From Branchiostoma floridae (Eukaryota): a DNA stretch of 64,000 nucleotides. Both the position numbers and the translations under genes were made by a program. Of this stretch, positions 25,901 through 64,000 are shown piece after piece. Every line of letters starts with the position of its first letter. Position 1 is the stretch's first letter. A model generated the notes under the pieces. The model saw only the letters and a list, made by a program, of their open reading frames with translations. It was not told the origin of the DNA and did no database searches. Location of the stretch: positions 3,066,707 to 3,130,706 of the forward strand of contig NC_136205.1 of NCBI RefSeq assembly GCF_015852565.1, read 5' to 3'.

Positions 25901-28900
25901 ATGATTTTGGAAACGGTCAGACGTTTTGGATAGAATCCACTATCCTTCGTCAGTGACACTGAAGTGATCTGGAAGAAACAGGTCTTTTATACTCTAACTA
26001 TGGATGAAAACAATTTCAGATGTCCAATTTTGGTAGGAGTAATTGTTACATGATTGTATATCTTTGAAAAATTCTGTTTGTGCCCCTGTAGATATTGAGT
26101 GAGGTTCAGACCCACACAGCCAGCGTGCCCCCCAGTGTCCTGGCTCTAGTGGACTCACTCTGGGAGGAGGCTCTGGGAAACCTGTCTCACGTCATCAACG
26201 GAGATGTACTACACATCAAAGTGGACCAGGTTCGTTCGTTTGTTCGTATCCATTTTTGATTATACTGCTGCTGGGATCCCTGTCACGGGTAGGCAGCAGT
26301 CGGATAGTCTTCACACTGTGCTTATAATAATATAATAATATCATTAATTTCTTTCTGTCCCTTGAATTTTCAATGGAATACTTGTCGAGTGTGGAAGGCG
26401 CGATGATCCTAAAGGGGTCTTGGGAACTTAGTTTCAAAATCTCTGAAAGACCCCCTGAAACACTGTTTCCTGCATTTTGAGGGGCAAATTTTGCTGGTAG
26501 AGTAGACTCAGCTTGGTCCAATCACCAGGTATCTGAGCTGTATTCATGGAGATCTTTGCAATATTTGATTTTTTAGATATCTTTACATGCTGGTTTTTGT
26601 CCGTCACAAAGGACAAAATGTGTAAAATGTTTGTTTGTCCCTAGCTGCAAAGTTCCATCGAAAACAAGGACGGATGCAGACTAGAACCCTGGGTTGTACT
26701 GTAACCTAGTATTGATCAGAAGTTTCATCACTTAGTAATCAAACATACTTTCTTGATCTTTTAGGTATTATTATCACCTATAGAAATGTCTGATTTGTTG
26801 AAAAATATTGTATAATGATATGATATGAAGTTATGACGTTTAATTGAAATTATGACATTAATGCATTTTACATGAACTATTTTCTTTTCCAGATCGACAA
26901 GGCAGAAGCACTACTTCTAAAGCTAAAGCAGGCTGTTGAAAGGAAGGCAGCAAATGAGGAGCTTCAGAAACTCTCCTCGGAGTTTTACAGCGCCATCCCC
27001 CACCGACCCGTCCACAAGTGTGTCATCAGGAACAAGAGGATAATAGCACGGAAACAGGACATGTGTCAGGTACAGGGCTCTAGCCAGCTCGACATTTTTT
27101 TTCCGTCAGCCAATTCCCAATGTCGCGAAAACACTATTCCAGGAGTTAGAGAGACTGAACTGAGACCTTAAAAAACGGGTTTTAATGAGATTATCGTATG
27201 CAAAAGGGCACCGACACACAATATCAACAATCATAACAATAGCAAAACAAACAGTGTGTGGCTTTTACGGCCGTGGACGGCGTCCCCAAGCAGCCTGTAG
27301 CTTCCACCAAGGAGCTTTTATCAGATTTTTGTCCGTCAAAGTTGACGGATTGGTTTTAAAATTTTTCCGTCACACGCAGCAAATTTCCGTCAATTGACGG
27401 AAAAACGGACGCTGGCTAGAGCCCTGGTCAGGTAAAAAGTAGGCCGGTAGCCTAAAAGTAAGACATTGTCAGGCTTCAGTTGATCCATAGACTATAGAAT
27501 GAATGAATGAAGGAAGAAAACCTTTATTGTAAAATGATAAAACTATGTTTCTGCTCTCACAAGCTAAGTACAAGTCAAAATGATAATAAAAGATGACAGT
27601 TCCGAGTAGTCTGAGTACAAGTTCTTAATTAAGTTCTAGTGATGTGAGGGCAAGTTATCTCACTACATTACTACTAGTCTAGAAACAGGGCCTCAGTTGG
27701 CATAGCCTGGAGACATGATATGTTACACTTCAGTCAAGCAATACCAGGAAGACAAGACATGTCATGTCATGATATATCAAACAACCTGAAATTTTGCTAG
27801 TCAAGAAAGAAATCTGACAGAGGTTATGTGCTATATTAATTTTGTAGGTTTCAATGCATAGTACAAGATTGTACAAAATCAAAGCAGCTGTATATTTTAC
27901 TTAGAAGATTACTTTGAAGTTTATGAACTCTAGCATAGTCATATAATAACATTGAATTTAAAAATGGAATGCAAAAGTGTTTAACGTTAATTTTTCATGT
28001 TTCCTTTCCCAGCTGATTCGAGACATGGTGAGCGTGAGTGAGGCCACGAGCTGGGCTTATCGCCCGAGCGCCGTCGCCAGGTGCCACGCCCTCAGGTGTA
28101 ACATCCAACCACTGGACAGGGACAGCGAAGACTTCCGTAGTCTGGAGTCCACGATTTACTACAGCCAAGGGAAGGGGTAAGGCCATTGTGTCACAGGGAT
28201 GAGTGAGAGAGTGAGTGAGAGAGTGAGTGAGTGAGTGAGTGAGTGAGTGAGTGAGTGAGTGAGTGAGTGAGTGAGTGAGTGAGTGAGAGTGAGTGAGTGA
28301 GTGAGTGAGTGAGTGAGTGAGTGAGTGAGTGAGTGAGTGAGTGAGTGAGTGAGTGAGAGAGTGAGGTAGTGAGTGAGAGTGTTTGAGCGGTTGAAAGTTT
28401 TAAATTCTATTTAATAGGCTACATACATTGTAAGCTTATTGAACTTAAAGATCTTGTTACTTGTTTTGACTTGATCTTAAGATGTTTTGCCTCAATCTTG
28501 AGATGTTTTAGAAAAATCTTAAAATGCTTCATAAAACATCTCAAGATATTTTGAAAGTTGCTTGAAAAAGTCCCTGAATTTACTATTTTTTACAGTGATT
28601 TGAATGCGTATCTTAATCATATTGTCATCAGTAATACACCCAGTATTCTCTCAATCACCGTACAGTTTTTAGGGTTCATGATTGTGTTGTTGATAACCCC
28701 CTCACATTAGGCGCGATTCAATCAGACGACGAGTCTGCGAGCTCTAAATTACGAGGAGGCATGACCCTGACGGGAAGGGGGAACTCTGCCATTTCTTCGT
28801 TGGCATCAGGGTCATGCCTCCTTGTAATTTAGAGCTCGCAGACTCGTCGTCCGATCGAATCGCGGCTAATGTGAGGGGGGGTATAAGCACCATCCAATGT

Positions 28901-31900
28901 GGTAGATCTCTGGGTGAAAAACATGCTTGTGAGAGACACACATGGCCAAAGCGTTATTAAATTTCAACTATATGACAAGGACATACATGTAGCAGAAATA
29001 AGTTAAACAGCTTCTTTAGGAGTTTTTAAAAAAGGTAAAGTTCAACCACACTCCTTATTTTCAGTGGGCAGTCCATCAGAGTTGAGAACGTGTTCAGGGT
29101 GTGTCGCTCTGTGGAGGAAGCTGGGTTCAACTCTGCCATCGGGAATGTCCAAATCAAGTTTCACTCCTCACAGGTAAACTATTTGTTTTCTCACAATGAT
29201 TTTGTTACTAAATCATGTTTTTCAAAAGTGACTAATGAGAAGTTAACAAAGTTAGTATTTTTTAAAAAATTTTCTATATCAGTCTATCTTAGTTGAGGCA
29301 CCTGCATTTAAAGCTCCTTCTATGTATTTTCAATTAATAAATCTCTTTTGTATATTTTACAGGCACAGAACTTTGTTGGCATCTTGTCAAGGTAGGCAAG
29401 ATTTCAGTTCTGTATCTGTATCTGTATCTGTATCTATATAGCCGGTATAACCGCCGTTTGGCGTAACACACCAGCTTCGCAGGCACGCGGCGCGGCAGCA
29501 GCTGGTTATATTACACCAAACGACTCGTTACCCCTAACTTTTGCACATCTATCTGCAAGCATTCTTTAAAACTACCCAGAGAAGATGCCCCTACTGTACT
29601 TGGTGATAACAAATTCCACTTAGAATTGTTAAGAATGAATGACAAAAGGTGTTGATATAACCTTAACCCTGTGAAACTAGATCTTATGCAATAAATGATC
29701 TCTATACAGTCATCACATTAGTATTTAGTAACAGTTTTAATATTCGTTAACTAGCATTATTTTTAGTTGTCTGTCTCTTTTACACGTTAAACTAAAAAAC
29801 ATGACCTTGAAACGTGTGTTGTTCAGAGGTCTGCTGCTCCCCAAGGTCGTTGTTGATGACTTCGGCGGAACCAGAACTGACGCAGGCATGCTGGGACATG
29901 GCATCTACTTCTCAGATGCAAGGTAAGGGTCGTGTGGCGCAATTAGAGGGTGTTTGATTGATGAAACTCTTGTTTTCCCAGTTTTCCGTAAGCCAGTGAA
30001 AATGTTTGGTACATGGTGCTGAAATGCCGTCCATCAAAATTTGAAGACTTAGTCAGTTACTACTGGTGGCTGCTGGTCCCAGAAAAGTTATTTCCTGATG
30101 TCAGTTTCCTGCTATATGTATGTAGTACATGTATGACCTAGGAGCCAGTGGGGAAAATACTGAAGACTTTATCAAAAAGAAATTTGCAGTAATAATGACT
30201 AAAACTGGAAATTAACATAAACTAAAAAAAGAATATTTCATTGAGGCATGACACTATTGATTTCTTGTTTCTTGCTATTCAACAATGGTCCATTCTTACA
30301 GCACCAGTGCAAAATACTCCTCTCCCAACAAGTCCAGAGGTACCAGATACATGGTAGTGAGTGAGGTAGCCTTGGGGAAGTGTAAGGATGTGTATCAACA
30401 CGGCATCGATTCCTAAATGTTTCTAACATTTCAATCATGGTCCTTTCTTACAGCACCAGTGCAGCATACTCCTCTCCCAACAAGTCCAGAGGTACCAGAT
30501 ACATGGTAGTGAGTGAGGTAGCCTTGGGGAAGTGTAAGGATGTGTATCAACACGGCATCGATTCCTAAATGTTTCTAACATTTCAATCATGGTCCTTTCT
30601 TACAGCACCAGTGCAGCATACTCCTCTCCCAACAAGTCCAGAGGTACCAGATACATGGTAGTGAGTGAGGTAGCCTTGGGGAAGTGTAAGGATGTGTACA
30701 AACACGACACCAGCCTGACACAACCACCTCAGGGGTACAACAGTGTGCATGGAGTCAAGGGGACTGATGAGATCACTTCAGAGTTTAAGGTAGGAATATT
30801 CTAAATGAGAAACGAACTCTTCTCCAACTCCAAAGTATTGAATTTTTGTCTGAATAACTCAGTCGTCTTAATCTGGAGAGAATCTCATTTTCATTTACAA
30901 CTGTCTTGAGAAGCAAGAAGAAGTTGAACCTTTACATACTAGACTAAGTATACTTTAGACTTTGTTGTCTTAGTTTTATATCACATCCTTACACACATTG
31001 CACTTAGAATCCCTAGGAACTGCATTCTATTCACCTTGTTTCCAATGACATAATTTCCGAAAACCAACATGCGTATAGAAAATCACACTCTACAGCTAGT
31101 GCCCTTATACAAATGTCTGACTACTGGTTGGGGGAGATAGATAAAGGGAATTTGATTGGCGCCGTTATGCTAGATTTTAGCGCGGCATTTGATGTCATTA
31201 ACCACGATATTTGTTTAGCCAAGCTTAAGAGCTATGGTTTTGAGGAATCTGCAATCAAGTGGGTACAGAGTTATCTTGGCAACAGGAAACAAGCTGTATT
31301 CGTTAACGGTAGTTTTTCCTCATATAAAGAATCCAGGTGCGGCGTTCCCCAAGGCAGCTGCCTGGGTCCATTGCTTTTCTCTATATTTGTCAATGATCTC
31401 CCCGCATTTACAAATAGTATAGTAGTCATGTACGCTGATGATTCAACGCCCTCAGCATCGGCTCCCACTGTCGCGAAATTGAAATACAAATTGCAGACTG
31501 ACTTGGAGCGAATCTGGAATTGGGTACAAACTAATCATCTTGTTCTCAATATTGGAAAAACTAAATCAATCATGATGGGTACGCAACAAAAACTAAAACG
31601 TAATCCCAAATTAGAACTAAGAATAGATGGAACAGACATTACACATGTAGAACAGGCTGAACTGTTAGGTCTCACTATAGACCAACGTCTCACATGGGGA
31701 TCGCATATTGACAAAACGAAGAATAAAATGGCAGGCATACTAGCCACAATAAGACGACACAGGAAGTACTTCACAAAAAGTATATTGAGATCTGTTATTC
31801 AGGCTCTGGTTTTGTCACACATTGACTACGGCTCAGTGCTGCTATCCTCTGCACCACAGACACACATAGATGGTCTTCAGGTGGTCCAGAATCGCGCTGC

Positions 31901-34900
31901 TCGCCTGGCCACAAACAAGCCCTTTGACACCAACCTGGAAGACCTACACATGCAGTTAAAGTGGCAAACCGTTAAAGAAAGACTCTTCACAAATACTGTA
32001 TGTACATTCCACAAAATTGTTAAGGAAAGGCAACCCCAATGCATCTTCAAGCAATTACAAACAATTCAATCCACACATGAGCATCACACGAGGCTGTCTA
32101 CTAGAGGAGCATTCACTCAATCAAAACCCAAAACAAACGCTAAAACAAGGACATTTGGCTACAGATGCATCAAAACCTATAACACATTGCCAAACACAAC
32201 GACATCATACAACAACATTGAGTTCAAATCTAGGATAAAAGAGCTTGCGAAAACACGAGACAAAAGACAACCCCTGAGCACATGGTGGTAATGATTTTTA
32301 TATTTCAGTATATCTAAGTTATATATTTATGTTGTGTTATTAGTACACTTTTGATTGGATTGTGTTTCAATCAATTAAGTTAACTTCTTCTGCTATTCAT
32401 TATTTGTTATGTATGATCACTTCTTTATTTTGACCTCTGACCTCTGCTTATTATTTTGCTTATTATTTTACGCTAATTATCCGCTTTTGATGTTAAGTTG
32501 TTTCTTTTTCATTTCATGTATTTTATTTATTCTTATTATTATGACTCCAGGAAGAGTAGTGGCATGATTTTATGATGTACACTAATGGAGATCGCAACAA
32601 ACAAACAAACCTTGACCTGTACTTGTTAGAGAGCATAAACGTATAATAAAGGTCTTCATTATCATTAAAAAATCTTAGACAGAAATTGTCAACACAATGA
32701 TTACTAATAGATTTATATCATTTATAGCTTAATGAGTTTTGGTAGTAGTTAATTACATATGTTTCATACTCAATCTGGTATATCCTGTTACAGGATGATG
32801 AATATGTCATCTACAATGTTCAGCAGCAAAAAATGAGGTATGTGAAACGAATTCCCATAATTTTGTATCTTGTGTTGTTTATAACTGTGTGGCAGAAAGT
32901 AGAAGTGGAGATTGTCACTGCCCTAACATCAATTCTCATAATTTAACTGGGTGCCATCAATACCCCCAAATGAGAAAAAGACATGAATTCAATGTAATTT
33001 AAAGAGATACAGACATTACAGTAGAAGCCAGTCAACTGCACAATGGATTAATGCACACTTCTGTTAACTGCAAGGAATCCCAAACCGGTGCAGTCCAGCT
33101 AGATAACTTTGCATTATTACACCAGCCGGATAATTGCACGAGATTCATTGGCAAATAGGCCGTGCAATTAAGTGGCTTCTACTGTATATGAATGCAGCAT
33201 ATGTAATCCTTGGGTACATGTATATAGTATTACACTTCAGATATTTACGTGACATGTTCAAAATGATCTTGAGAATGCCTCTATGTTGAGGTCTTATGGC
33301 ATCTGATGGAATTATGAGACTCATAAGTTGATGTTACACAGTGTTTTTAACCAACCAATTCTCACTGTACATTAACCATTGCTTTCAAGTACTATTTATT
33401 TATTGGTTTAGCTGTTCAGAACACACAGCCAGGGTTGCCCAACTAGCCTATGGCTATTACAAAGGGCTAACCCTGCTGACAAAAACAGAGACAATACATA
33501 TGGATTTGAACAGAATACTTATCAACAGATTTTCTAAGTTCATAAAGGATAGAAATGAAAACAAAAAAAAGTACATTTATACAGTATATACAAGGTGTAG
33601 CATGGCATACATATTATCTATAATAGAATATATAACATCATATATAACAATATTTGCAATGAGAGGTCAGGGTCTGTATATACACGTGTATGACTATGTG
33701 TAAGGGTCGCCTAGGCATTCTCACAGTTTTCTTTTGCTTGATAACATTGTTAGTGCTTTTGCAGATGTTTATTTCATGACCTGAATTTCTCCGTTGTTGC
33801 AGGTACCTTGTGGAGTTCTCGCTGCCAGGTGATCAGGTGACACCTGTGGATGAGACTGCTTACCTGCACCTGCTCACACCTGAGGGGGAGGCAGAGGAAG
33901 GGGAGGATCTAAACAAGATCTGTAAGTGCTGTAAAATTATTACAGGCTTACAAACTCTTAGATAAACAGGTACATAGAAAGTAGTGTGCTCCCTTATGTA
34001 TTTGGGGGGTTGGCTCAAACCCTGGTTTGAAAAATAGTACATACATGACTTCTTCAGCACTTAACACTTATGACAAAGAGTGTAAAAGCACAACAGTGGA
34101 CTAACCCCATACTGTGGTGGTCCTGTGTAGTCTAAGGCCTGTAGAGATATAGCTGCCACCTCGTTCAGTCTATATATGATAAGTATGGGACTTAGAATTA
34201 GGACTAACTTAAGTGTTTTATGCCTTGAAAATAAAAAGTAAAATAATAATTAGAACATGCATCTATTGCATGTTACAGCTCTATATAGTCTATTGATTTT
34301 AACAGGATTCAAGTTTTGTTTTCAAAACTTATTAAAACTTTGAAAGGAACAATGATTTCACTAACTGTTACTGAAAAGCATACAACTTTTTTTTTTTCAT
34401 CCAGCCCTTGAAGATGTGCAGAACATTGCTGACCCTCTAGACAAGGTCAAAGGTGGGCTTATCTCCAAACACGGGGAGGAGACCCCCGTCCCGCTCAAGT
34501 CTGTACATGTCAGAGCCAAGCTCCTGGATTTAGCTGCACAGGTAAACTATAAGTTGTATCCATTATTTGATGAAACTGCTGCTGAGGGGTGGGTACCGGT
34601 ACAGAAAATTTAAGTACTATCTGGTTCATATAAAGAGGAAAATGTCCAGGTCTGGATCTGAACCTCGACCTGATTGTCTGTGAAAACCTTCGTCCTGAAG
34701 AAATTATGGTAACTACAAAGTAAAACTAAACTCTTCTTCACTCTTGTTATTTCATTGGACATTTTGTAAGCTCCCAAACGTGTAGACCAGTGCCATAATC
34801 TGTTCATTTTCTATCAGACTCTTATCAGGTCTGTTTTTCTTGGACCGGTAAAACAAGAAAAAAAATACACTATATCAATGTTCGTCCACTATTGCTTGAA

Positions 34901-37900: not shown

Positions 37901-40900
37901 TTCATTTTGAAAACAGATTTGCAATGGAATATGATTCTATTTAACTTTCTTTGGTGCTGATTGGCTATCACACGATGCGGTCTCATTTCAAATGATTCTA
38001 TTTACCTTTCCTTGGTGCTGATTGGCAATCACATGAGGCATTCTCATTTGAAATAATTTTATTTACCTTTCATTGGTGCTGTTTTGCAGATTTGTAACGG
38101 AATACAAAATAGTCTGAAGCTTCTGTACGTTGGTGCAGTCGCTGTAGAAGAGCAATTTGAAAGAGTGCTCAACAAATTTCATCGATGAAATATCAAACGT
38201 TTGATAGGATATAGCCCTTATTCATGTCCTTGTTAGGTATTGTGATGTAACTAGTTTTTCTTTATAAACTTTACAAATTCCATTTTGTAGGATATGAGGA
38301 ACTGTTTGCTGTGAGCCAGTCCAGAACCAAGTCCAATGTCTCTAAGGCTGAAACCTTTATCCAGGTATAGTCTTCATCTCATTGTTATTGAGCATTATAA
38401 CTTATCCCATGTAACTGTCTTTCAAGGTTTATTAGGCAAGAAAACAGTATACTGTTCCTTTTTGTTTGCCATTCTAATGAAATCTTGTTTCATCTGTCCT
38501 TGGTGCTGATTGGCTGTTGCATAGGTAGTCTTCTCCTATGTAATGATTATAAACTTATCTTACCTTGGTGCTTATTGGCTGTGACATAAAGAAGTCCTCT
38601 TTCAAATGATTCTATTTCATCTTTCCTTGGTGCTGATTGGCTATCACATAAGGTGGTCTCATTTCAAATGATTCTATTTCATCTTAAGTTGGGTTCTGAT
38701 TGGCTGTGACATTAAGCAGTCTCCTTTCAAATGATTATATTCTATCTCTCCTTGGTGCTGATTGGCTATTACATGAGCAGTCTCATTTCAAATAATTTTG
38801 TTTTATTTAGTTAATGCTGATGGCTTGGAATTTAGGCAGTCTTCTTTCAGATGGTTCTATTTTATTTCTCCTTGGTGCTGATTGGCTATCACATGAAACA
38901 ATCTCATTTCAAATGATTCTATTTCATCCTACGTTGGTGCCAATTGACTATCACATGAGGCGGTCTCATTTCAAATGATTATATTTCATCTTACATTTTA
39001 CTGATTGGCTGGAACTTGAGGCAGTTTCTTTCGAGTGATTTTATCTAGCTTTCCTTGGTTCTGATTTGCTATCATCTCATGCAATGTTATTAAAACTAGT
39101 CTATTTTATCTCTCCTTGGTGCTGATATGCTATCACGTTGTGTAGTCTTTTATCTAAGTACTAGTTTTATCCCACCATTTATACTGAATGTCTCTTGGAT
39201 AATCCCATTTGATATCTGATTTCTCTTCCCTTACTAAATATCAAAACACAGCAAACCATACACTTTTTGTAGGTGATTTTCAGTAGTGATACATTTGACA
39301 AGAAAGCCATAGAAAGAAAAATGTTCTTACCAATTTCTGCAATTATTTTATCAGAATGTCAAAGCATCCAAGGGAAACACAGATGCATGGAGACCCCTGC
39401 GTGGGTTCTTCCTGCTTCCGCCGTTGGGTAAAACACGGAACGTGTTCCTCATCTCTGACGGACATGTGAACAACCCTGACCAGACTCTGAGCGACATCCA
39501 CCAACATTACCAGGAGACTAGGGTCTTCAGCTGTGGTGTGGGGTAAGGACAAATCTCACAAGATTTTGTGTACTATTCCTTGAACCTTGAACCTTGACCA
39601 TTCAAGATTCAAGATATAACAAATTGATCCTGACTGTCCGTAATAATTAGCAACCAATGACACTACTGGGAGACAAGGGTCTTCAGCTGTGGGGTGGGGT
39701 AAGAATGCATCTCACAAGATTTTGTGTACTGAACTTGATTCTACTGGAAGATACATTTGTAAGTCAATGTGTAACAACAGACAGATCCTGGCTGTCCATC
39801 ACAATTAGCAGTTTAACCAATGATGGTATGGTAATTAGTGTTTAGATTGGCTGCAGTCTCGCAGACATTTGCATTTTTCTGTTTTATATCCTATCTTCTG
39901 CTGGAGGTGGATGGGGCTATATGAGATTGGTCTACTGGTTAAGATTTGGAGACTTACTTCATGACTTTTTAGTTACTTTTGTCACTCTTTTTCAACAATA
40001 ATAATATGTAAGATGGAAATAGAACAATTGAACATCACAAAGTCTGTAGAACTCATATGAAAATGATTAGTTACAGAGATTGCCTTCCAACATAGCAACC
40101 TTCCATTTTTTTTTCATGTAGAATGTAGCAACAACACAATAATTCTTGATGCTTGTTTTTAGGTCAACTTCCAACAAACATTTGCTGCGAGCCTTGGCCA
40201 GGGTGGGAGGGGGCGCCTTTGAGTATTTTGATGATAAAACCAAATCCAAGTGGGAAAAGAAGGTAAAGTCTATCATTTTATATCATGAACATGTAATATG
40301 TTTCATCGTTTCCCATAAAGTTTGCATTGCATGTATATCTTAATCTATATTGTCATTTATCAATAATTACTTTTAATACTCAATTTCATATACTTTATTA
40401 GGCTTTTATGCATTTTGTTATTTATGTATGAATATCAAAACACATAATTCATTACATACTCTCAGGCATACTTTCATACACATGTGCACACATAATTTTT
40501 ATACAAACACACAAACATACACATAGGCACAGAGACACAAACACACACACACACACACACACATACACACACCACTAAGGTCATCTAAGGTCAGGACACA
40601 CATACCTATATGGTATCAAGTTACATATACTAGGGCAGTATGCAACGGAAAGGTATATAAGTGCGAACTTTGTGTCAGCCTCAAACCTCAGAAGATATTG
40701 AATGTGCACAGCAAAACTGGTTTGGCTGACCAGCTAAAAGTTACACACTGAAACTTGTAGCTCCAGATGTCTTACTGAGGGATGACTGCAGTGCAAAATA
40801 TGTTGGTAGCTTAAAGAATGAGTCCACTCAACTTTATACATAATACACACAACACACATAGGTACACAGACACAAACACACACACATACACACACACACA

Positions 40901-43900: not shown

Positions 43901-46900
43901 TGCAGTCACAGCTCTCTTTGGCAATGTTTTATCACAACAAATTGAATATGCAGGACAAGGCCTGCCTGGTTGCAAAGGCTGCCTTTGACGATGCGATCGC
44001 GGAGTTGGATACTCTGAGCAAGGAAAGCTACAAGGACTCGACCTTGGTGATGCAGCAGTTGAGAGACAACTTGACATTGTGGTCTGCTGAGGACGGGGAA
44101 GAAGAGAAAAAAGCCAACGAAAAGAAAAAGGTCCTTATTCCTAGTGTCAACCATAGCTCACTTTGGCTAATCAACCTTCTCGGATGAAGCCCATCTTACA
44201 TACCCAACCATGGCCTCGCGACCTTCTCCAGACCATGGTTGGGAGTTAAGCCCCTGTCACACATAGCCGACCATGCCCTCCCAACCTTCTTCAGACCATG
44301 GTCAGGAGTTAAGCCCTTGTCTTACATACCTGACCATGGCCTCCCAACCTTCTCCAGACCATGGTCAGGAGTTAAGCCCTTGTCTTACATACCTGACCAT
44401 GGCCTCCCAACCTTCTCCAGACCATGGTCAGGAGTTAAGCCCTTGTCTTACATACCTGACCATGGCCTCCCAACCTTCTCCAGACCATGGTTGGGAGTTA
44501 AGCCCGTCTTACATACCCAACCATGGCCTCGCGACCTTCTCCAGACCATGGTTGGGAGTGAGACCATCAGTAATTTGGACCAGACCAAACTTGGCAAAGT
44601 CATATTCTTCTAAGGTGCAAGCAGATTGGTAAAATGGAATATGGTTGGTAGCAAGTCATTGAAAGGTCCTGAATTTGTGACAGGGGATGTGACTAGTACA
44701 TAATTTTGCATGGAAACGGGAATAGACCGACTGAGTGTGCTTGTTAAAACTAAGAGTAGATTATCTTCAAGACCAGAATCTTCAAATTACCAATTGAATT
44801 TATCATAACTTTTCTATATTTGATGTTGTCAACAGGTCATAGAGGAAGTTTATTATGAAGAGGTTTTAATGGGAGGTAAGATACCAATTAATCTTTAATT
44901 TACATTTAGTTTAACCTTGTATTAAGTTGGAATTTATTGAATGGTTGATCATGAGATTTCAACACCAAGGACTCTATTGAAATGCACATCTTGATTTTGT
45001 TTTGGTATTTTTATTTTCCAACTTCTAGACTTGGATGATTTTGACATGGAGGACCCTGAGTATCTAGAAATGGGAGGTGCTGGTGTTTCCTCCAGCACAG
45101 AGGAGACAGAATCTGATGACTCGTGGGGATCAGATTCAGATCTAGATGAAGAGAGTGAATGTGAGGAAGGTAAGAAACTAGTTGGAAATCTTTAACGATG
45201 TATCTGCCCATCATTGCCAATCATCATCATCATATCTTGTCGCTCCATCTCCTTATCCAGCTGCGGGCTGCCTCATTGGCCTCTCTTAAGCTAAGGGCAC
45301 AACCTGCCGTACATACAATTTGTCTGTATGTTTTTTTAGGCCACGTTCCCCACATATGTCTGGAAACGCTTCGTCCGTACTGGCACATAGGGGGGCAAAT
45401 CCGCAGCCCGAGGGCACACAAAGTTTTGCCTGCACGTAAAGTTCTACAGCGTGTCTGCGTGCTCCGTCGGATTCTCTACGAGTTTGTATGGAGGCGGTAC
45501 TTACCACTTACGGATCCCAAAAGATTGCCCACGTATTTGCATGTACAGCGGGCTGTGCCCTTAGCTTTAGGTCACTGTCCGAGCAGGTTGGGCCAAGTTC
45601 ACAGTTTTGTAACAGATGTTGTATTGTTTGCAGCTCTGCTCAGTATGGGCAGGCTGCACTTGCAGATTTGTCCAATTTCATTTCCAATAACGTTTTCCCT
45701 AGAGTTTTGTTTATTTGATGTTTTTGGTTTTGATGTTGCTTAGACTGGAGATGGTTCGCTAGACCTAGTGGTTGACCAGTCAGGTTTGACTCACTGTGGA
45801 CTGCATATTTACTTTTGAATTATTCTATTGTAAATGCCCATATGGTTGTTTTATGTTCACAGTTTCACTGTTGCCGCTTTACCACATACTCAAACCACTA
45901 GGAACATTTCTCCATGACAGTAAATTGTTGCTACAGTATATGGTGCTATTGCATGTGAACTCAAAAAGTCCATTTTCCTGCTTCTGCAAAATCAGATCCC
46001 TGCAAACTTAATTGCATGTACTGTATCTTGTTCACAGGAGGTAAGGAAACAGTAAGAAAGAAAGATTCATCATCACCAGAGGAGGAAGAGAGTGAAGAAG
46101 AGATGGGGTTTGGATTGTTTGATGATGGTGAAGGTAGGATGGCAGGTGAGATGGTAGAGTACTGTAAATCTTGAGATGCATGGTTTTCATGGTGACATCT
46201 CCACCATGATACAATCGCCATACAAACAGCCCGGCTGGGCCCTGGGTTATAGAAATGTGACTTAGTCCTTACTGTTACCTAGTTTAATAAAAGAGACAAC
46301 GAAAAAGAACTGCAGTCAAAAATCATACTTTTGACACTTTTTGTTGGGCTCCGTTTTTCAAAGACACTAACTCTTGAATCTTTCTATTTCTTCAACAGCT
46401 GCTGATGAAAAAGAGGGTTCTCCTCTTGCTGATACTTATCAGATGAAGGCTAATGCCTTGCAATTGGAAAAAGGTCGATTTGCATCTCCCATGAGGTCTA
46501 GATCAAGGTCAAGGTCAGATAAACATTCCTCTCCAGCATACAGCCCGACATCTCCAGCATATAGCCCAGCATCTCCAGCATATAGCCCGACTTCACCTAC
46601 TGAGGAAGCCACAGAGGCTGAGTACACAAAGCCTAAACCTCTAGCTCGGAAAATGGCACCAAAACGGGTCGAAAAGGAGAAGGCACCAAGCCCACACTTC
46701 TCAAAGATGTCTGCAACGTTCTTGACCCGAGAATCTGAAAGGGGAAAGTCCTCATACAGAGTGTCAGATGAAGTTCAGGCTCGTGTAGATCGCCTTGATG
46801 ATCTAGTAGAAAAAGCTGATGCTCTTAGTGCACAAGCTGCAATATTTGGTGCTTCAACAACCATTTCTAAAGATGATGGCCTCTTTGCCGGTTCAACAGA

Positions 46901-49900
46901 GGCAAGTGTGCAGAAACCTAAACCTTTTGAATCCAAGCCAGGTATCGTTCAACCTGCCAGATTTACTTATGAAGCAACACCAGATACTACCAAGGGTCTT
47001 TTTGGCAGAAAGGCTGAACCAGAGACTGCAGGGTTTGCTCTTGCCCAGTCTGTGGCCGCAGAAGAGCCAGCTCCTGCTTTTGGTTTTGGAGCTCCAGTTG
47101 CAAGCTTTGGTGCAGAAACTTATGGAACTCGTGGTGTAGACTTGGATGCACCCATACCGTATGGCAAAATCCCAGTTGGTGGAACGCCGTTTGGTGAAAC
47201 GCCAGTTAGTGGAAAGCCGTTTGGTGAATCTGCTGTAAAGTTTGGAGGTCCTCCTGGCACTGTAGCTGGCACAAAGACGCAAGAGACTGCATTTGGTCAG
47301 GGTTTTGGTTATGCTTCAAGTCGTGGTGTAGGCTTTGGTAAAGCAACATTTGGTGAAGCAACATATGGCACACCATTTGGTGGAACACCATTTGCTGCAA
47401 CCACAGGTCTTTTTGCCCACTCAACTGCACCAAAGGATCAGGAAGCTGTGTCATTTGGTTTTGCTCCCTCTACTGACCAGAGCACAAGGGGTGGTGGAGG
47501 ATCCGCAGGTGGTTTTAGCTTTGGTTGGACTGCATCATCAGATTTGGGACAGAGGGATCGAGACAGGAGCTCCCCCCTAATTGGTGACACAAAAAAAGGA
47601 TTCAAGTTTGGAGCCTCACTTGAAGAGAAAGAAGAAACAGCAAGCTTTAGCTTTGGTGGATCCAGCCAGAAAGTGGTTCCTCAAGCAGGTTTTGGAGCTG
47701 ATCAACAGATGCAGCAGCAACAACAGCAACAACAACAACAGGCTCAGATGAATGTCTCTGATACTGCTCCTCAGAGGAAGATGCGAAGCAGGCTTCATGG
47801 CGCTATAGCTACCTTAAGTGAATCCAGTCAAGCAGAAATGGTTCCTGAAGCAGGTTTTATCTCCAATCAACGGATGCAGCAGCAACAGGCTCAGATGGAT
47901 GTTCTTCTTACTGCTCCTCCGAGGACAGGTGGTGGAAGGGTTCATGGCGCTTTAACTAGATTAGACGAATCCAGTCAAGCAAAAGTGGTTCCTCAAGCAC
48001 GTGTTGGCTCTCGAGCTCCTCAAAAAGCGAGGAAGACAACTGGCGGCAAGGCTGTTAGAGTTTCTTCAGGATTCAAGGACAGCTTGGACATCGTAGACAA
48101 GAGTTCACGCGACACTGGTGACTCTTGGAGAGCTGTCAAACGGACCGAGACCCCCATGGCTGGTTATTTTGACATGAGGGCCATGTCCCCTGCCTCAACA
48201 AATTCTGCACAGTCAGTTGCTTTTCAACAGCTGTCAGCATCTGCTGCCTTTCTACAGGCACCCCCTCCTGCGCCACCCCCTTGTTCAACAGGCCCCCCTC
48301 CTCTTCCACCCCGCTGCCCAGCAGGACCCCCTCCTCCAGCTGGTGCCCCTCCCCCACCACCACCACCCCCTAAGGGCATTCAGCTTCTTAAACCAAGAGC
48401 AAGTTTAAAGTCCAAAGCAGTAATGGCAGCACCCATGCGTGCACTATCCATGCCCTCGAAAGAATATGCCCCATTGCCCCCTCCTCCTCCAAGTTCAGTC
48501 GAACAGGCACCAGAGCTACCAGCATGGGATAGAGAAGAAGAACTGCAAATGGGGATTGTTGAAGAAAGCCGTGCAATTGCTTCGTATGAACAGATGGAAG
48601 AGTTAAAACCATTGTCAAGAAGTTTGGAATTGAGACAAAAGAAGAAAAAGAAACAGTTCGAAATCCAGGCAAGGTTGGAGGAAGAAAAGGTATCATTGGA
48701 CAAAGTCATGTACATGGATGAAAGCGTTCAAGAAGGAGAGGAAATGTACAGGTAAGAGTGAAGTCAACAAAGTACAGTCTCTACCTAATTAGATGAATGT
48801 GAAATTTTCCACAAATCGGGGGAATATTTTATCTGAGAGCTTGCAATTGCCTGGTTAATGTAGTACAGGCTTGTCCGCTGAAGATTGTAACTTGTAACTG
48901 TAGCCCTTTGGCCAATTTCTACTGATTTTTCACATAAACCACAGTCTCATAGGGACTAAATGAAATGTTTGATTTATGTAATTGTGGCAAACATGTTGCC
49001 TACCTGAGCTTTTCAAAGGAAAAATGTAAAGTTTCAATAAAGTTAACGTAAATTACTTTCAAGGACCAATTTAGGGACTATTCTTGACAATTGAACTACA
49101 TGTAAATCCAAGGTTACACAAAGCTTACCATAAAAGTGTACAACTTGTGATAACAGTCATTATTTTCCACATAAAGCAGTGTTCAAGTTTGTGGGCACGG
49201 GTCAATGGTATGCAAATGTATTGTGTCGTCTTAACTTTATTCTTTAAAGTAGGGGTTCTTTGCATTGAGCAATTTCATGATATTCATACAATGCCACATC
49301 GTTGTAAACACCACAGAAGACAGTATCTCTTTTGTTTAGTATTTTTGTTTGATGTCAGCCTGTTGTTACATGATTGTGTATAATTATGCCTTTGTCATCT
49401 TGTTCATGACTTTTGTAACATGTATTACAAACTTTATTTCAGGACCAGTTTGAGGGGGTTTTACGGTCCAAGAAGAGGTCCCGGTGCATATCACTCTGCC
49501 AGCTTTCATCTAACCTCAGGTAGGTTAATCAATTCATGTGCAAAGTAAGGCTAATATCAGTAGTCTAAGACTAGATGGAGAGCTTTTTTATATAGTCATC
49601 CAAAGATCTAAACTTCATTGAAATATCATGATAGGACCGTTGATCATTGAAATAGCATTGAAAGATGTTGTAGGTCACTAAAATATCATTAGTAAGACCA
49701 TACTTCAAATGGGGGCATGGGTTCGTATCCCACTTCTGACACCATATTGGCTTAGAGATTATCTCAGTCGTAGACTTAAAATGCTCAACATTTCTTGTCC
49801 CAAAGAACTAATTGCCAAGGTACAATGGACCTGTAAATACTGTACACAGTGTCCATCTTACCTGTCATGACCAGTGCAGATGTTAGTAATGACTGACTAA

Positions 49901-59810: not shown

Positions 59811-59816
59811 TTTATT
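59811..59816 (-). terminator. Candidate polyadenylation signal (AATAAA on the minus strand) for the ZU5-UPA-GT gene
   Basis: Plus strand reads tttatt, about 200 nt 3' of the stop at 60018-60020. Position only. Confidence 0.2.
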
Positions 59817-60017: not shown

Positions 60018-61225
60018 TTAAAGTCCAAATACGTGTAGGAAGTTTTTATTCGATTCCTCCCAGTACTTCGAATCCAGCAGTTTCTGCTTGAGCCGTTGAG
60101 CAACCTTGAACTCCGTGCTTCTATTCTTCAATATCTGCACAATGCGCGTTTTTAGCCTTGCCACGTCTTCGTGGTCATCGCCACTGATCTCCACAATCGG
60201 GTGCGTGAAATCCAAGTCACCGTCAATCTTATATTGGGCCTTCAAGAACTCTGCAAGCCCCGACTTGCTGGAAACGACCGTAGGGACACCCGCAGCGATG
60301 GCCTCGAGGCCAACCAGTCCGAATGGCTCTGCACGTGACGGCATCAGAACAACATCTGCCCTTCCCATCTCTTCGCACAGCTCTTCCTGTGTGCAATACT
60401 CCAGAGGGGTGAAGGGAACAAACTCAAATTTACCTTTGTTGGCGTTGATGATCTCCTGTGTTTTTTCAAAATCCCCTTTCTTGATGCCACACAGTCGCCA
60501 CTTCGTGTTGGGTAGTTCCTCGATCACATCTCCCATGCTCCGTGCTGAAAGATCGTAGCCTTTCAACCTCTCCACACCCTTGACCCTACCGATGGACAGC
60601 ACCACTCTTGTGTCGGTCTCCGCGGGTGGTTCCATATTGGCCTTGCTGAATATGTCGGACGGTTTAGGCAAAAACTGGATCCGTTTTAGTTGTTTGACTT
60701 GCTTTGTCTGATGCGTGTAGTAGTCGTGCAACCTTGGACCTACTGAGACGACAACACTTGCATCTTTAAGGTCATCCAGAATGCTCGCATGCTCCTTTGC
60801 TATCTCCTGCACTCTCTCTGTACTTTTGTAGTGGCTCGTGTTTTCAGGGATGACGTGTGTGACTTGGGCGAGTTTGGCGTCAGGAAGGCGGTCCTCCTTG
60901 ATTCGTTTTGCTGCGCGGCTTGTGATGTTAACGTGACCGACGATGAAGTCTACATCTTCCGGTAAGTGTGGATAATAAGTCAGATGTTGCCGGGTCAGCC
61001 ACTTAAGGTTTGGGGTTTCGTCGTCATCTTCGGTTCTTGGAAAGATCAGCTGAACCCCATCAGCAGCTGCATCATCCTTGTCCTTCTGGTTGGCCTGTAA
61101 GACTGTGCTGTAGACCTTTGCCCCTTTCAAAGCCAGAAAGCGCGCCGTCTGGCGGTGGATAGTGGATATGCCCCCTTTGGAGGTCCCATACTCATCGTTG
61201 AGCATCAACACCACGGGCTTTCCCC
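60018..61225 (-). CDS. ZU5-UPA-GT gene terminal exon: complete GT4-type glycosyltransferase domain (about 400 aa) in one exon
   Basis: Track ORF 60018..61244. Gly-rich N-terminal motif: KPVVLMLNDEYGTSKGGISTIHRQTARFLALKGAKVYS. E-x7-E motif EPFGLVGLE at 60303-60329, followed by AIAAGVPTVVSSKSG. Acceptor ctgtttaaag at 61226-61235, phase 1. Confidence 0.85.
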
Positions 61226-64000
61226 CTTTAAACAGCAAATGCACATAGTTTTTTCAAAGTTGCAGATAGACTGTTGATATCATTAAAAGTAGTAAAATAT
61301 GATTGCATGATCTTGGGCCTCCATCCATAGCTAAAGATATAGTTAAAGGTGTTGATATTTTAGGATGTACACTTAGCTATTGTCCTCGTGTTCGATACAA
61401 GTGCAGCATTTTGTCGATTAGGTTATACCTGGCAACTTCCTCATCATTTTCAGTTTTTCTAAGGTAGCACAACGTACAATTATATGCATTCAGTTCACTT
61501 TAGGAAATAAAACATGTGAGCCAGATTTGCCTTGTCCACTTCTGTACACTTCGGGGCTACCTGTGTGTTAGCTGGTCTCAGTTTTCTGTCCAAACAATGC
61601 TGCAGTGTAATGCACAATGTAGATCCTGTATGCTCGACGTATGGGGCAATTGACTTGTTTTTGTTTTTTTAAACATGGTACTGGTACTGTTATAATGCAG
61701 CAAAGTACTAGTACTATTTTAATGACCCAATTTACAGCTGTCGTCCACAAGTCCCATAGACTTTTGTTGCTTTGGACTGGAAAATGTATAAATCCTCACC
61801 TTCTTTCCGAGAGGCAGGTGCTGTTGCCCCTGCCGGGCCACTATGGAGATTGGTGTTAGAATCGTCTGGCTCAGCACCCATCTCAGGTACACCTGTAGTT
61901 TAAGGGTCAAATAGTTGATGTAATATCGAGTGCTTTATTTCAAAGTCTAAAGACTTTATACAAATGAAACATAATCAGAACCATATACGTGTATTTGGAT
62001 ATATGCGTATTTGGTAAAATGAAATGAAATGAAATGGATTCTCACCTGGGTTACTGGTTTCAGTTGGTACATGGCCAGACCCAACTTTATTTGGGGATGT
62101 CTCAGGACGGTGGTCATTGGTCCGGTTACCATTACCTACCAAGCACGAAGAAAAACAACATAGCAATTAGACCCGGTGATATGTTAAGACGTATATGAAG
62201 ATATAACTTCAGGTGTGCAAAAGTCAAAATATAACCAAATTAAAGGCCCTCGTCAGTAATTCTCATAGACTTTCGTTGCCTTGGACTGGTAAATTATATA
62301 CTGTACGTGGTTTCTATTTATTCGGAATTAGCCTCTCAAAGTGTCGCAGAATTCCATAAAACTACATCTAGATCACTTATTTGACATCTGAACAAAATCA
62401 AAGCAACAGTACCATTGTTAAATAACAATTATAACAATTCGGCATAACAATTACAAAAATTCGGCATCACAGAATGAAGGGACATTTTGTATTCCTAGAC
62501 TTTTATAGAAATAATTACATGACTTTTGCAAAGAGAAAAATGTACTCACTAGAAGTGTTAGGAATTCGATCTTGGCGTTCCTGAAAGAGAAAAAAAGCAC
62601 GCCGGGAACTTTATTTTGGGGACATCGCAATACCATAATAATGGCTAATTGTAGCATGATGATCTACTAAATCGTACATCAAGTAGACGTGTTTGATATT
62701 ACACCATAATATTTGGTCATATGATTCTAAAGCTACATTTTGTTTGTACTATGGTTTTAATCCGGTATTTGGGTAAGCTTTGCTTTAGAATAAAGCATTT
62801 TCGGTTATATCTTAGACGCTCTTACCTCCCGAAACGTGAACCTGCATACAACCCGAGGTTCTTGCTCTTGAATAGTTGTGATGATGACTTCACCCTTAAG
62901 ATGTTTTCCGTTCGGCCTATCCAGGAGCATTTGAACAGTCTGTCCGTGCTCTTCGCGACAGAGCTGGGCACATAGCTCTATTGTCTGAGATTCTTTTTGG
63001 CCTTCTTTGATACTGACAACAACTTCAATATCATTCCTTTGAAACAGATCGAACATTGCTTTGTTGCTTCCACACATGGTGAAGCCAGGAAGGTAATAAT
63101 CTTTTTCAACACTCTTGTCCCTACACACAACATGGAAATCTACGTCTACTTCATGTGGCTTGATGTGTGCGGAAAACCGACAATTTAAAGTTCTTAACGA
63201 CAGAACGTATGCCATGCTCTGTCCTACATGTACACCCGTTTCAATTTGCTGCAGCTGCTGCTCGGTCCACAGCACACACAGGGGACAGAAGGCTTGCAGA
63301 GATATGGACAGTTTGTCCGGATGTATCTGATGTGGGGTTGAAGCTGTGATATCTGCCCAGCCATGTCCATCGAAATGCTTCAGCAGAACACATTCCATGC
63401 CTTCAGTACCCGGAGGTCTCCATGTCTCTAGCTCAATTGGTCCACTCAGCTGTGCGCCGTGTAGGTTGACATCGACAGCCGGGGAGAACAGCACCTGATC
63501 CAGCAGCTCGCGTGGACAGGCCTCCTCACATAGAGACCAAGGGTAGCCAGAGATCCAGCTGAAGCCTTCGTCACCTCTCAAAATATCGGGAATGTCTACA
63601 GTAGAAACTGTAATTGTTGTGTCTCTCTGAAGGACGCCTGATGGCACACAAAGTTTGGCAAAACCGGAAATCTCAATCTCCCCACCCGATGGTCCTACAA
63701 ACGCCTTTGCAGTCTTTGTGTGATGTAGCTCTTGCAGTATTCCTAAAATAAGTCAAAGGCATATTAGATTTGATACGTGCAAAATACAAATTTTGTTCAA
63801 ATATGTTTTACGTAAATCACCTGGCTGTCTTTCCAGTGCATAATACAGTTTGAAAGGAAAGTAATCTAGGGCGAGAAAAAACAGTACATTGGTTGTAGAA
63901 AAAAGTATGCTATACTCGATTCGAATTCTCTGTTGCGTACACACGCTCTGCTTGCAGTAAGAACTTGGTGTGTGTTGATGAAATTCAAACAAACCTGCAA
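60018..64000 (-). CDS. Gene model (3' part; the 5' exons lie beyond 64000): FIIND-like ZU5-UPA module, Pro/Ser/Thr/Gly-rich linker, GT4-family (Glycos_transf_1, GT-B fold) glycosyltransferase domain
   Basis: Five exons with canonical splice sites whose phases (x/0, 0/1, 1/1, 1/1, 1/stop) give a single open frame from 63742 to the stop at 60018. Confidence 0.75.
61800..61892 (-). CDS. ZU5-UPA-GT gene linker exon
   Basis: rc: GVPEMGAEPDDSNTNLHSGPAGATAPASRKE. ctacag/gtgagg. 93 nt, phase 1-1. Confidence 0.6.
62046..62135 (-). CDS. ZU5-UPA-GT gene linker exon
   Basis: rc: SNGNRTNDHRPETSPNKVGSGHVPTETSNP. ggtag/gtgaga. 90 nt, phase 1-1. Confidence 0.6.
62550..62580 (-). CDS. ZU5-UPA-GT gene 31-nt exon
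   Basis: rc: ERQDRIPNTS. ctttcag/gtgagt. Converts phase 0 to 1, as needed between the flanking exons. Confidence 0.5.
62826..63742 (-). CDS. ZU5-UPA-GT gene exon encoding ZU5 and UPA (FIIND-like)
   Basis: rc: [48 protein letters not shown]...SPAVDVNLHGAQLSGPIELETW...LLKHFDGHGWADIT...LSISLQAFCPLCVLW (ZU5), then ...NCRFSAHIKPHEVDVDFHVVCRDKSVEKDYYLPGFTMCGSNKAMFDLFQRNDIEVVVSIKEG... (UPA-like). Acceptor ttattttag at 63743-63751, donor gtaaga at 62825. Confidence 0.8.

Follow-up and report, generated by a model that had tools for sequence, protein, structure and literature searches.

In the 64,000-nucleotide stretch of Branchiostoma floridae DNA analyzed here (hereafter the window; NCBI RefSeq assembly GCF_015852565.1, contig NC_136205.1, positions 3,066,707 to 3,130,706), five exons on the minus strand encode the last 778 residues of XP_078585414.1, a cytosolic protein of several domains in which a ZU5-UPA module is joined to a glycosyltransferase of the GT4 type. 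The order of domains in this protein is TPR repeats, a DED-like helical domain, ZU5, UPA, a linker of approximately 70 amino acids and a GT4-conflict glycosyltransferase; no death-fold domain lies C-terminal to UPA, and GT4 is found there instead. As a predicted gene model, the fusion of ZU5-UPA to GT4 is real. With regard to its function, we give roughly even chances to the full chain of events in which the DED-like-ZU5-UPA unit (hereafter the cassette) would act as a regulated release or activation device with GT4 as its output, through cleavage at Phe151-Cys152 (residue numbers are those of the window translation unless stated otherwise).

The exons, whose coordinates are compiled in Table 1 together with those of the domains and motifs, were flanked by AG acceptors and GT donors at all five positions, and their compatible phases spliced to one open reading frame (ORF) of 778 amino acids without an internal stop, comprising the last five exons of the gene. 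The translation, linker exons included, was 100% identical to residues 309-1086 of XP_078585414.1, a predicted RefSeq model from Branchiostoma floridae x B. japonicum which uses exactly the same splice junctions. In line with the preliminary description of this DNA, which had been made from the letters alone, the exon coordinates, sizes and phases, the quoted peptides and the Gly-rich and EX7E motifs of the glycosyltransferase were all found where it had placed them, and the continuous reading frame that it had proposed was recovered. The N-terminal part of the gene, which it had located outside the window, amounts to 308 amino acids that map past window coordinate 64000. A Pfam scan of the full protein revealed four TPR_12 units (residues 1-215 of XP_078585414.1) and a helical domain that matched DED weakly (residues 229-290, E 1.4e-3); apart from these and GT4 no domain was matched, and in particular no NACHT/STAND NTPase was present in the model, which begins mid-TPR. 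Given this start, the true N-terminus may be further upstream.

The same five-exon layout, with the same phases, was observed in a paralogue from B. belcheri (P0033, LOC109477414; locus L001). There, ZU5-UPA was likewise contained in one large exon ending in phase 0 (...AAG GAG/gtaagt, the slash marking the splice boundary), followed by a micro-exon (EGEILQR) and two phase-1 linker exons; GT4 occupied one exon, which is entered in phase 1. That the ZU5-UPA and GT4 exons of the window could instead be two neighbouring genes, with the linker exons as chance open frames, is suggested by the B. floridae v1 annotation, which splits the region into C3YGJ6 (DD...ZU5-UPA, truncated) and C3YGJ5 (GT4 with a 70-aa N-terminal extension), and by the fusion being known here from genomic sequence and predicted models alone. 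We nevertheless consider an annotation artefact of this kind very improbable. The GT4 exon starts in phase 1 and cannot stand alone as a gene because no in-frame ATG precedes its first beta-strand, whereas the ZU5-UPA exon has no terminal stop, reading on into the intron meeting one after 6 codons, and no decayed death-domain exon was detected in the window (tblastn with the death domains of paralogues, E below 0.3). Furthermore, all four introns are canonical and phase-compatible, the junctions are identical in XP_078585414.1, the layout and phases recur in B. belcheri, and ZU5-UPA-GT4 models were produced by three annotation pipelines in several N-terminal contexts. A pseudogene was rejected, the ORF and motifs being intact, and bacterial contamination as the source of the GT4 exon was rejected as well, the exon being spliced and having more than 100 intron-containing amphioxus paralogues.

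Table 1. Positions in the window of the exons, domains and motifs of the ZU5-UPA-GT4 gene.
Feature	Positions	Strand	Details
Exon 1, ZU5-UPA	62826..63742	minus	917 nt; phase ../0; window translation residues 1-305 = XP_078585414.1 residues 309-613
Micro-exon (ERQDRIPNTS)	62550..62580	minus	31 nt; phase 0 to 1; cag/GAACGC ... TTCTA/gtgagt; also in XP_078585414.1
Linker exon, Ser/Thr/Pro/Asn-rich	62046..62135	minus	90 nt; phase 1 to 1; identical in XP_078585414.1
Linker exon	61800..61892	minus	93 nt; phase 1 to 1; identical in XP_078585414.1
Terminal exon, complete GT4-conflict domain and stop codon (60018-60020)	60018..61225	minus	1208 nt; phase 1/stop
AATAAA polyadenylation-like signal	59811..59816	minus	about 200 nt past the stop codon; consensus match only
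ZU5 half, approximately residues 9-150	63291..63716	minus	contains the N-terminal VGPSGGEIEISGF motif; residues 50-75 form an insert that is conserved and specific to the family
UPA half, residues 152-305	62826..63287	minus	pLDDT 85-95 in the second model; co-aligned with the ZU5 half to ankyrin-B and UNC5b ZU5-UPA
Phe151-Cys152 codons, ZU5/UPA junction (LQAF-CPLCVLW), candidate autoproteolysis site	63285..63290	minus	conservation and position in the model
His122 codon (LLKH), candidate catalytic His	63375..63377	minus	30 residues before the junction nucleophile; His in 19/20
N-terminal Gly-rich motif of the GT-B fold (GKPVVLMLNDEYGTSKGG; includes GTSKGG)	61170..61223	minus	conserved in paralogues
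EX7E motif EPFGLVGLE, nucleotide-sugar binding / catalytic region	60303..60329	minus	intact

The assignment of the terminal exon as a GT4-type glycosyltransferase was confirmed by a match to PF20706 ('GT4-conflict'), the Pfam family created for conflict-system GT4 effectors, which covered nearly the whole model (positions 1-382 of 385) with an E-value of 3.1e-77 and a score of 260.6 bits against a cut-off of 26; both the Gly-rich motif and EX7E are present. In a search of the PDB, the EX7E sequence EPFGLVGLE aligned to EPFGLVALE of P. abyssi (Pyrococcus) GlgA, and the closest match of the domain reached an E-value of about 1e-4 over 55 residues, so that no closely related solved structure was found there. 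Similarly, no NCBIfam equivalog was reached, the partial matches to BshA, MshA and GlgA all being far below their cut-offs, and a PADLOC scan of the domain returned no match. The domain has more than 100 amphioxus paralogues (40-77% identity), which are fused to Death, DED, CARD, FIIND (PF13553), TRADD-N, OTU, LRR, FN3 and GTPase domains, and relatives also occur in hemichordates. Outside metazoans, the nearest relatives were Streptomyces proteins of the CATRA conflict system (26-28% identity, E 1e-18 to 1e-21). Within XP_078585414.1, GT4 occupies the effector position, C-terminal to TPR-DED-like-ZU5-UPA.

Exon 1 was hardly recognizable by sequence profiles. Pfam ZU5 (PF00791) scored 12.7 bits against a cut-off of 21 (E 0.16), that is, below threshold, the paralogue P0130 scored 17.2 bits, and a sequence-profile search of the PDB with a 6-sequence alignment of the module returned only a spurious cofilin match (E 0.36). 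A model of the ZU5-UPA module was computed with AlphaFold2 from a 20-sequence alignment, with an overall predicted local distance difference test (pLDDT) of 78.6, values of 85-95 in the C-terminal half, and a predicted template modelling score (pTM) of 0.49. When compared with the PDB by Foldseek, this model aligned over more than 310 columns, covering both halves, with the ankyrin-B ZU5-ZU5-UPA-DD structure 4d8o (7.8e-14), with AnkB 6m3q (9.4e-15) and with UNC5b 3g5b (2.2e-9). The ZU5-UPA call of the preliminary description is therefore supported at the fold level by the model, with a ZU5 beta-sandwich and UPA immediately after it, although the Pfam ZU5 score was below threshold. Its label 'FIIND-like' held in part: the fold and the junction motif described below agree with it, whereas exon 1 matched no FIIND family (PF13553) among Pfam families up to E = 1, and the hhalign comparison of the module with amphioxus FIIND domains was not significant (probability 0.3%). 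On these two results we do not class the module as a FIIND proper. Within the ZU5 half, an insert at residues 50-75 (window 63516-63593, minus strand; …ILRGDEGFSWISGYPWSLCEEAC…) was almost invariant across paralogues (W62, S64, G65, Y66, P67, W68, S69 and C75), yet had a pLDDT of approximately 41-51; it is possibly a binding or regulatory loop.

An exhaustive hidden Markov model (HMM) search with the exon-1 module detected only about 30 relatives among 1.84 billion representative proteins. XP_078585414.1 itself was recovered in this search (as P0124), whereas a word-indexed homologue search had missed it with either half as the query; a near-identical protein can therefore be present in the databases even where the indexed search lists none. 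Every relative whose source was looked up came from Branchiostoma, except for one metagenomic sequence of 334 amino acids, and the DED-like domain, ZU5 and UPA occurred together in all of them, so that, as judged from these sequences, the cassette is specific to amphioxus.

What follows the cassette varies. GT4 came after UPA in six members (P0124, P0033, P0126, P0127, P0131 and P0134), a Death domain in eight, Death plus Trypsin_2 in three and Trypsin_2 alone in one; the domains preceding the cassette were TPR, long ankyrin arrays, RING plus Roc-COR, or a dynamin-like GTPase plus kinase. The proposal that GT4 sits where Death domains normally sit was borne out by the closest paralogues themselves, since P0001, P0129, P0130, P0137 and P0139 carry a Death domain where the window protein has GT4. 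In P0125, P0128, P0135 and P0138, a Trypsin_2-type serine protease comes after the cassette, either directly or behind a death domain, and this protease is another enzyme in the 'effector' position behind the cassette. GT4 fusions with TPR, ANK and RING-Roc-COR N-termini were present in B. lanceolatum, B. belcheri and the hybrid assemblies, in models which NCBI Gnomon had produced for the hybrid assemblies and B. belcheri, in the annotation of B. lanceolatum (CAH1251072.1 'ANK1' and CAH1249856.1 'TRIM3') and in another annotation of B. belcheri (KAI8487113.1). Taken together, the cassette couples variable N-terminal repeat or switch domains to interchangeable outputs, namely Death, Death plus a trypsin-like protease, or GT4. 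With GT4 contained in a single phase-1 terminal exon and ZU5-UPA in a single exon ending in phase 0, the locus also illustrates how the immune repertoires of amphioxus are put together by exon shuffling.

Cleavage of FIIND takes place at a Phe-Ser bond and requires a His, and PIDD1 cleaves at HFS motifs. In the model of the window protein, F151-C152 falls in the gap that separates ZU5, with its last strand at 143-148, from UPA, with its first at 154-159, and conservation around this bond was counted in the 20-sequence family alignment. Position 152 was Ser in 16 sequences and Cys in the other 4, with no other residue occurring; Phe was found at position 151 in 18/20 and Cys in 2/20, and His at position 122 in 19 of the 20. 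The flanking positions vary, with seven different residues at 150 and a variable stretch at 153-157. Paralogues mostly read ...[ST]F-SP....W at the junction, the window protein reads LLKH...LQAF-CPLCVLW, and the metagenomic relative retains F-S....W at 19% identity. A similar motif was seen in the FIIND alignment of Kaur et al., in a row of the CARD8/NLRP1 type ('VAHF...SF-SP'; ...AHF...SF-SPLGVLL), where His and Ser are 27 residues apart as compared with 30 from His to Cys in the window protein. An occupancy restricted to Ser and Cys is the pattern that would be expected of a catalytic nucleophile, cleavage itself being a prediction.

A different state of this position was seen in a second amphioxus set, the FIIND(PF13553)-GT4 fusions (P0038, P0041-P0043, P0048, P0059, P0076 and P0097), which have no detectable sequence similarity to the window module. 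At the FIIND cleavage position they read …KGSLF-GVVG…, with Gly instead of Ser, and judging from this substitution self-cleavage may be lacking in them. Only the C-terminal end of a FIIND of this type is present in P0004, which at 77% is the nearest relative of the GT domain in the window.

The mechanism to which we gave even chances at the outset is predicted in all its steps, from cleavage and release to enzymatic activity and immune function. The motif His122...Phe151-Cys152 would perform an N-to-S acyl shift at the ZU5/UPA boundary (F459-C460 in XP_078585414.1), a reaction of Cys that would be the equivalent of the Phe-Ser cleavage in NLRP1, CARD8 and PIDD1, and the resulting TPR-DED-like-ZU5 and UPA-linker-GT4 fragments would stay non-covalently associated. 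A perturbation sensed via the N-terminal repeats, or the destruction of the N-terminal fragment, would then free UPA-GT4, and the immune or cell-fate output would consist in the glycosylation, by this fragment, of a target from pathogen or host. The preliminary description had suggested a sensor by which a glycosyltransferase is liberated or activated, and the conservation of F-[S/C] and the His at the junction makes this plausible. The exchange of outputs behind the cassette, the proposal of Kaur et al. 2021 that GT4 is a conflict effector taken over from bacteria, and the Streptomyces CATRA relatives of GT4 also speak for this mechanism. A bolder form, which we hold only tentatively, regards the cassette as a genuine autoproteolytic release platform that works by functional degradation and has been re-used to free enzymes (GT4 or a trypsin-like protease) and not death-fold adaptors; sensing in the style of NLRP1/CARD8 would in that case be a general way of deploying effectors and not specific to inflammasomes, with a Cys nucleophile in this locus.

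Several observations weigh against release by cleavage. The autoproteolysis is deduced from a motif, and a model with a pTM of 0.49 does not establish the relative position of His122 and Cys152. For the module, the Pfam ZU5 score stayed below threshold and the profile comparisons gave no link to FIIND; moreover, the solved ZU5-UPA modules structurally closest to it, those of ankyrin and UNC5b, are not known to self-cleave. With regard to the output, the enzyme activity is a prediction for a domain that reached no NCBIfam equivalog and had no PADLOC match, and the fusion as such is read from a predicted gene model, splice sites and sequence identity. Finally, the Gly after Phe in the FIIND(PF13553)-GT4 fusions means that cleavage would be no general requirement for a GT4 downstream of such a module. 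In a competing view, ZU5-UPA would be a non-cleaving autoinhibitory clamp that holds GT4 (or Death, or the protease) closed until a ligand at the TPR/DED-like part opens it, as would be in keeping with the closed supramodule into which ZU5, UPA and DD are packed in UNC5b and ankyrin-B. The clamp is a possibility that we rate as clearly less probable than release by cleavage. It agrees with the best structural matches being ankyrin-B and UNC5b ZU5-UPA and not FIIND, with the lack of significant profile similarity between the module and FIIND, and with the FIIND-GT4 paralogues without a nucleophile after Phe, in which GT4 follows a module that is probably uncleaved. However, a position 152 restricted to Ser and Cys, next to F151 and together with H122 amid variable neighbours, is hard to explain by packing alone, the exchange of Ser for Cys is typical of nucleophiles, and a UPA-GT4 linker of three exons and about 70 residues, of low complexity and flexible, is long for a rigid clamp.

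A further alternative accepts the fusion and questions its role: GT4 could have a non-immune function, glycosylating a cytoskeletal or signalling partner recruited by TPR or ankyrin repeats, or could be an inert binding domain. The NCBIfam matches to BshA, MshA and GlgA far below their cut-offs, the empty PADLOC scan and the automatic naming of some B. lanceolatum paralogues as ANK1 or TRIM3 would fit such a role. We think it improbable, if less so than the annotation artefact discussed above, given that EX7E and the Gly-rich motif are intact, that the match to the conflict-specific PF20706 is full-length and that GT4 alternates with Death and the trypsin-like protease in one cassette. Furthermore, the massive expansion of the domain in fusions with Death, DED, CARD, FIIND, TRADD-N, OTU, LRR and GTPase domains is of the type seen in lineage-specific expansions of innate immunity (Kaur et al. 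2021).

The class of proteins to which the locus belongs has been published. In the paper by Kaur, Iyer, Burroughs and Aravind (eLife 2021; PMC8195603), GT4 is a predicted bacterial conflict effector that was transferred to metazoans and expanded in them, with cephalochordates being named, and ZU5/FIIND autoproteolysis is proposed as a route of effector deployment, with PIDD autoproteolysis as a model. The source data of that paper list GT4+NACHT, ZU5+ZU5+GT4 and RVT+DEATH+ZU5+ZU5+GT4 for Acropora digitifera, and DED+GT4, DEATH+GT4 and sGTP+GT4 for B. floridae, in which the orthologue-like model XP_002604494.1 is entered as 'GT4' only. The GT4+NACHT rows for Acropora digitifera, together with PMC12314368, substantiate a fusion of Glycos_transf_1 to NACHT in corals that the preliminary description had mentioned. 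Its implication that the architecture is unique had to be abandoned: three pipelines have annotated this architecture, in three or more amphioxus species, ZU5+ZU5+GT4 and DEATH+ZU5+ZU5+GT4 were already tabulated for Acropora, and the GT domain falls in a Pfam family made for conflict-system GT4 effectors. What is already known thus includes the protein (in RefSeq), the GT4 family (in Pfam), the ZU5-GT4 fusions tabulated for coral and a published class of invertebrate immune-type fusions, of which the locus is one well-documented example; it defines no new class.

The metazoan GT4-conflict fusions (PMC8195603, PF20706) share with the window protein the GT4 family and the idea of an effector coupled to apoptosis or immunity adaptors. 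In comparison with that paper, the amphioxus DED-like-ZU5-UPA-GT4 is not listed there, the old models having been split, and neither the F-[S/C] junction nor the alternation of GT4, Death and trypsin-like protease is discussed in the portion of the paper used here. No paper on the amphioxus architecture or on the junction motif was found in full-text searches on ZU5/amphioxus and FIIND/glycosyltransferase, and Zhang et al. 2008 (PMC2575513) make no mention of glycosyltransferase or ZU5. The present analysis adds the view of a cassette in which one DED-like-ZU5-UPA unit leads to Death, protease or GT4, the junction occupied by Ser or Cys only, and the conserved logic of exon phases.

With respect to individual systems, the output of the FIIND-CARD proteins NLRP1 and CARD8 is a CARD, whereas here it is GT4, reached via a linker of about 70 amino acids; the predicted nucleophile is Cys here and Ser in NLRP1/CARD8, and the window protein has no NACHT or LRR, its N-terminus consisting of TPR and the DED-like domain. 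It showed no PF13553 match and no significant profile similarity, and a likeness to NLRP1/CARD8 in cleavage, DPP8/9 control and UPA-driven oligomerisation would be hypothetical. PIDD1 (LRR-ZU5-ZU5-UPA-DD) is alike in the succession of a repeat domain, ZU5-UPA and an output domain, but the window protein has a single ZU5, and its output is GT4 instead of DD. The PIDD motif is an H-F-S triad, while in the window protein the His is located about 30 residues upstream instead. As for the ZU5-UPA-DD arrangement of ankyrin and UNC5, sequence identity is only 12-16%; we know of no self-cleavage in these modules, which end in a death domain. In the bacterial CATRA, VMAP and STAND conflict systems, which include the nearest non-metazoan GT relatives (Streptomyces CATRA), GT4 likewise takes the effector position; they differ in being prokaryotic multi-gene systems without ZU5-UPA, triggered by caspase or STAND proteins.

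If the cassette self-cleaves and frees UPA-GT4, the release mechanism of NLRP1/CARD8/PIDD1 would extend from death-fold adaptors to enzymatic effectors, and the locus would provide a tractable model for the metazoan GT4-conflict enzymes, which are greatly expanded in amphioxus, hemichordates and corals and for none of which a biochemical characterization was found in our literature search. The 778 residues of ZU5-UPA-linker-GT4 constitute a compact, testable construct with defined point mutants.

Elsewhere in the window, a tandem array with a period of approximately 235 bp (5160-6263, minus strand) encodes repeated calcium-binding EGF-like units, apparently with one EGF exon and one intron per repeat, and probably belongs to a multi-EGF gene without relation to the fusion gene. 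A 392-aa ORF with a reverse-transcriptase domain (31113-32291, plus strand; RVT_1, E 6e-19) represents a retrotransposon fragment and is preceded by 2.8 copies of a 152-bp tandem repeat (30278-30706). On the plus strand at 46374-48755, an uninterrupted ORF of 793 amino acids and low complexity, with SPxY repeats, FG/GFG-rich stretches, polyQ and a PPPP-rich segment, had no Pfam match; it could represent either a gene of one exon that encodes a disordered protein or an ORF arising by chance in DNA rich in repeats. A stretch of 106 bp at 33395-33498 recurs with 83% identity in an unrelated flank of the B. belcheri locus (L001, 698-801) and is probably an interspersed repeat. Satellite-like tandem arrays were also present at 38488-39136, 37931-38088, 44194-44559 and 28200-28377, their units comprising 61-63 bp containing TGCTGATTGGC, a 63-bp unit in 5.8 copies and (TGAG)45.

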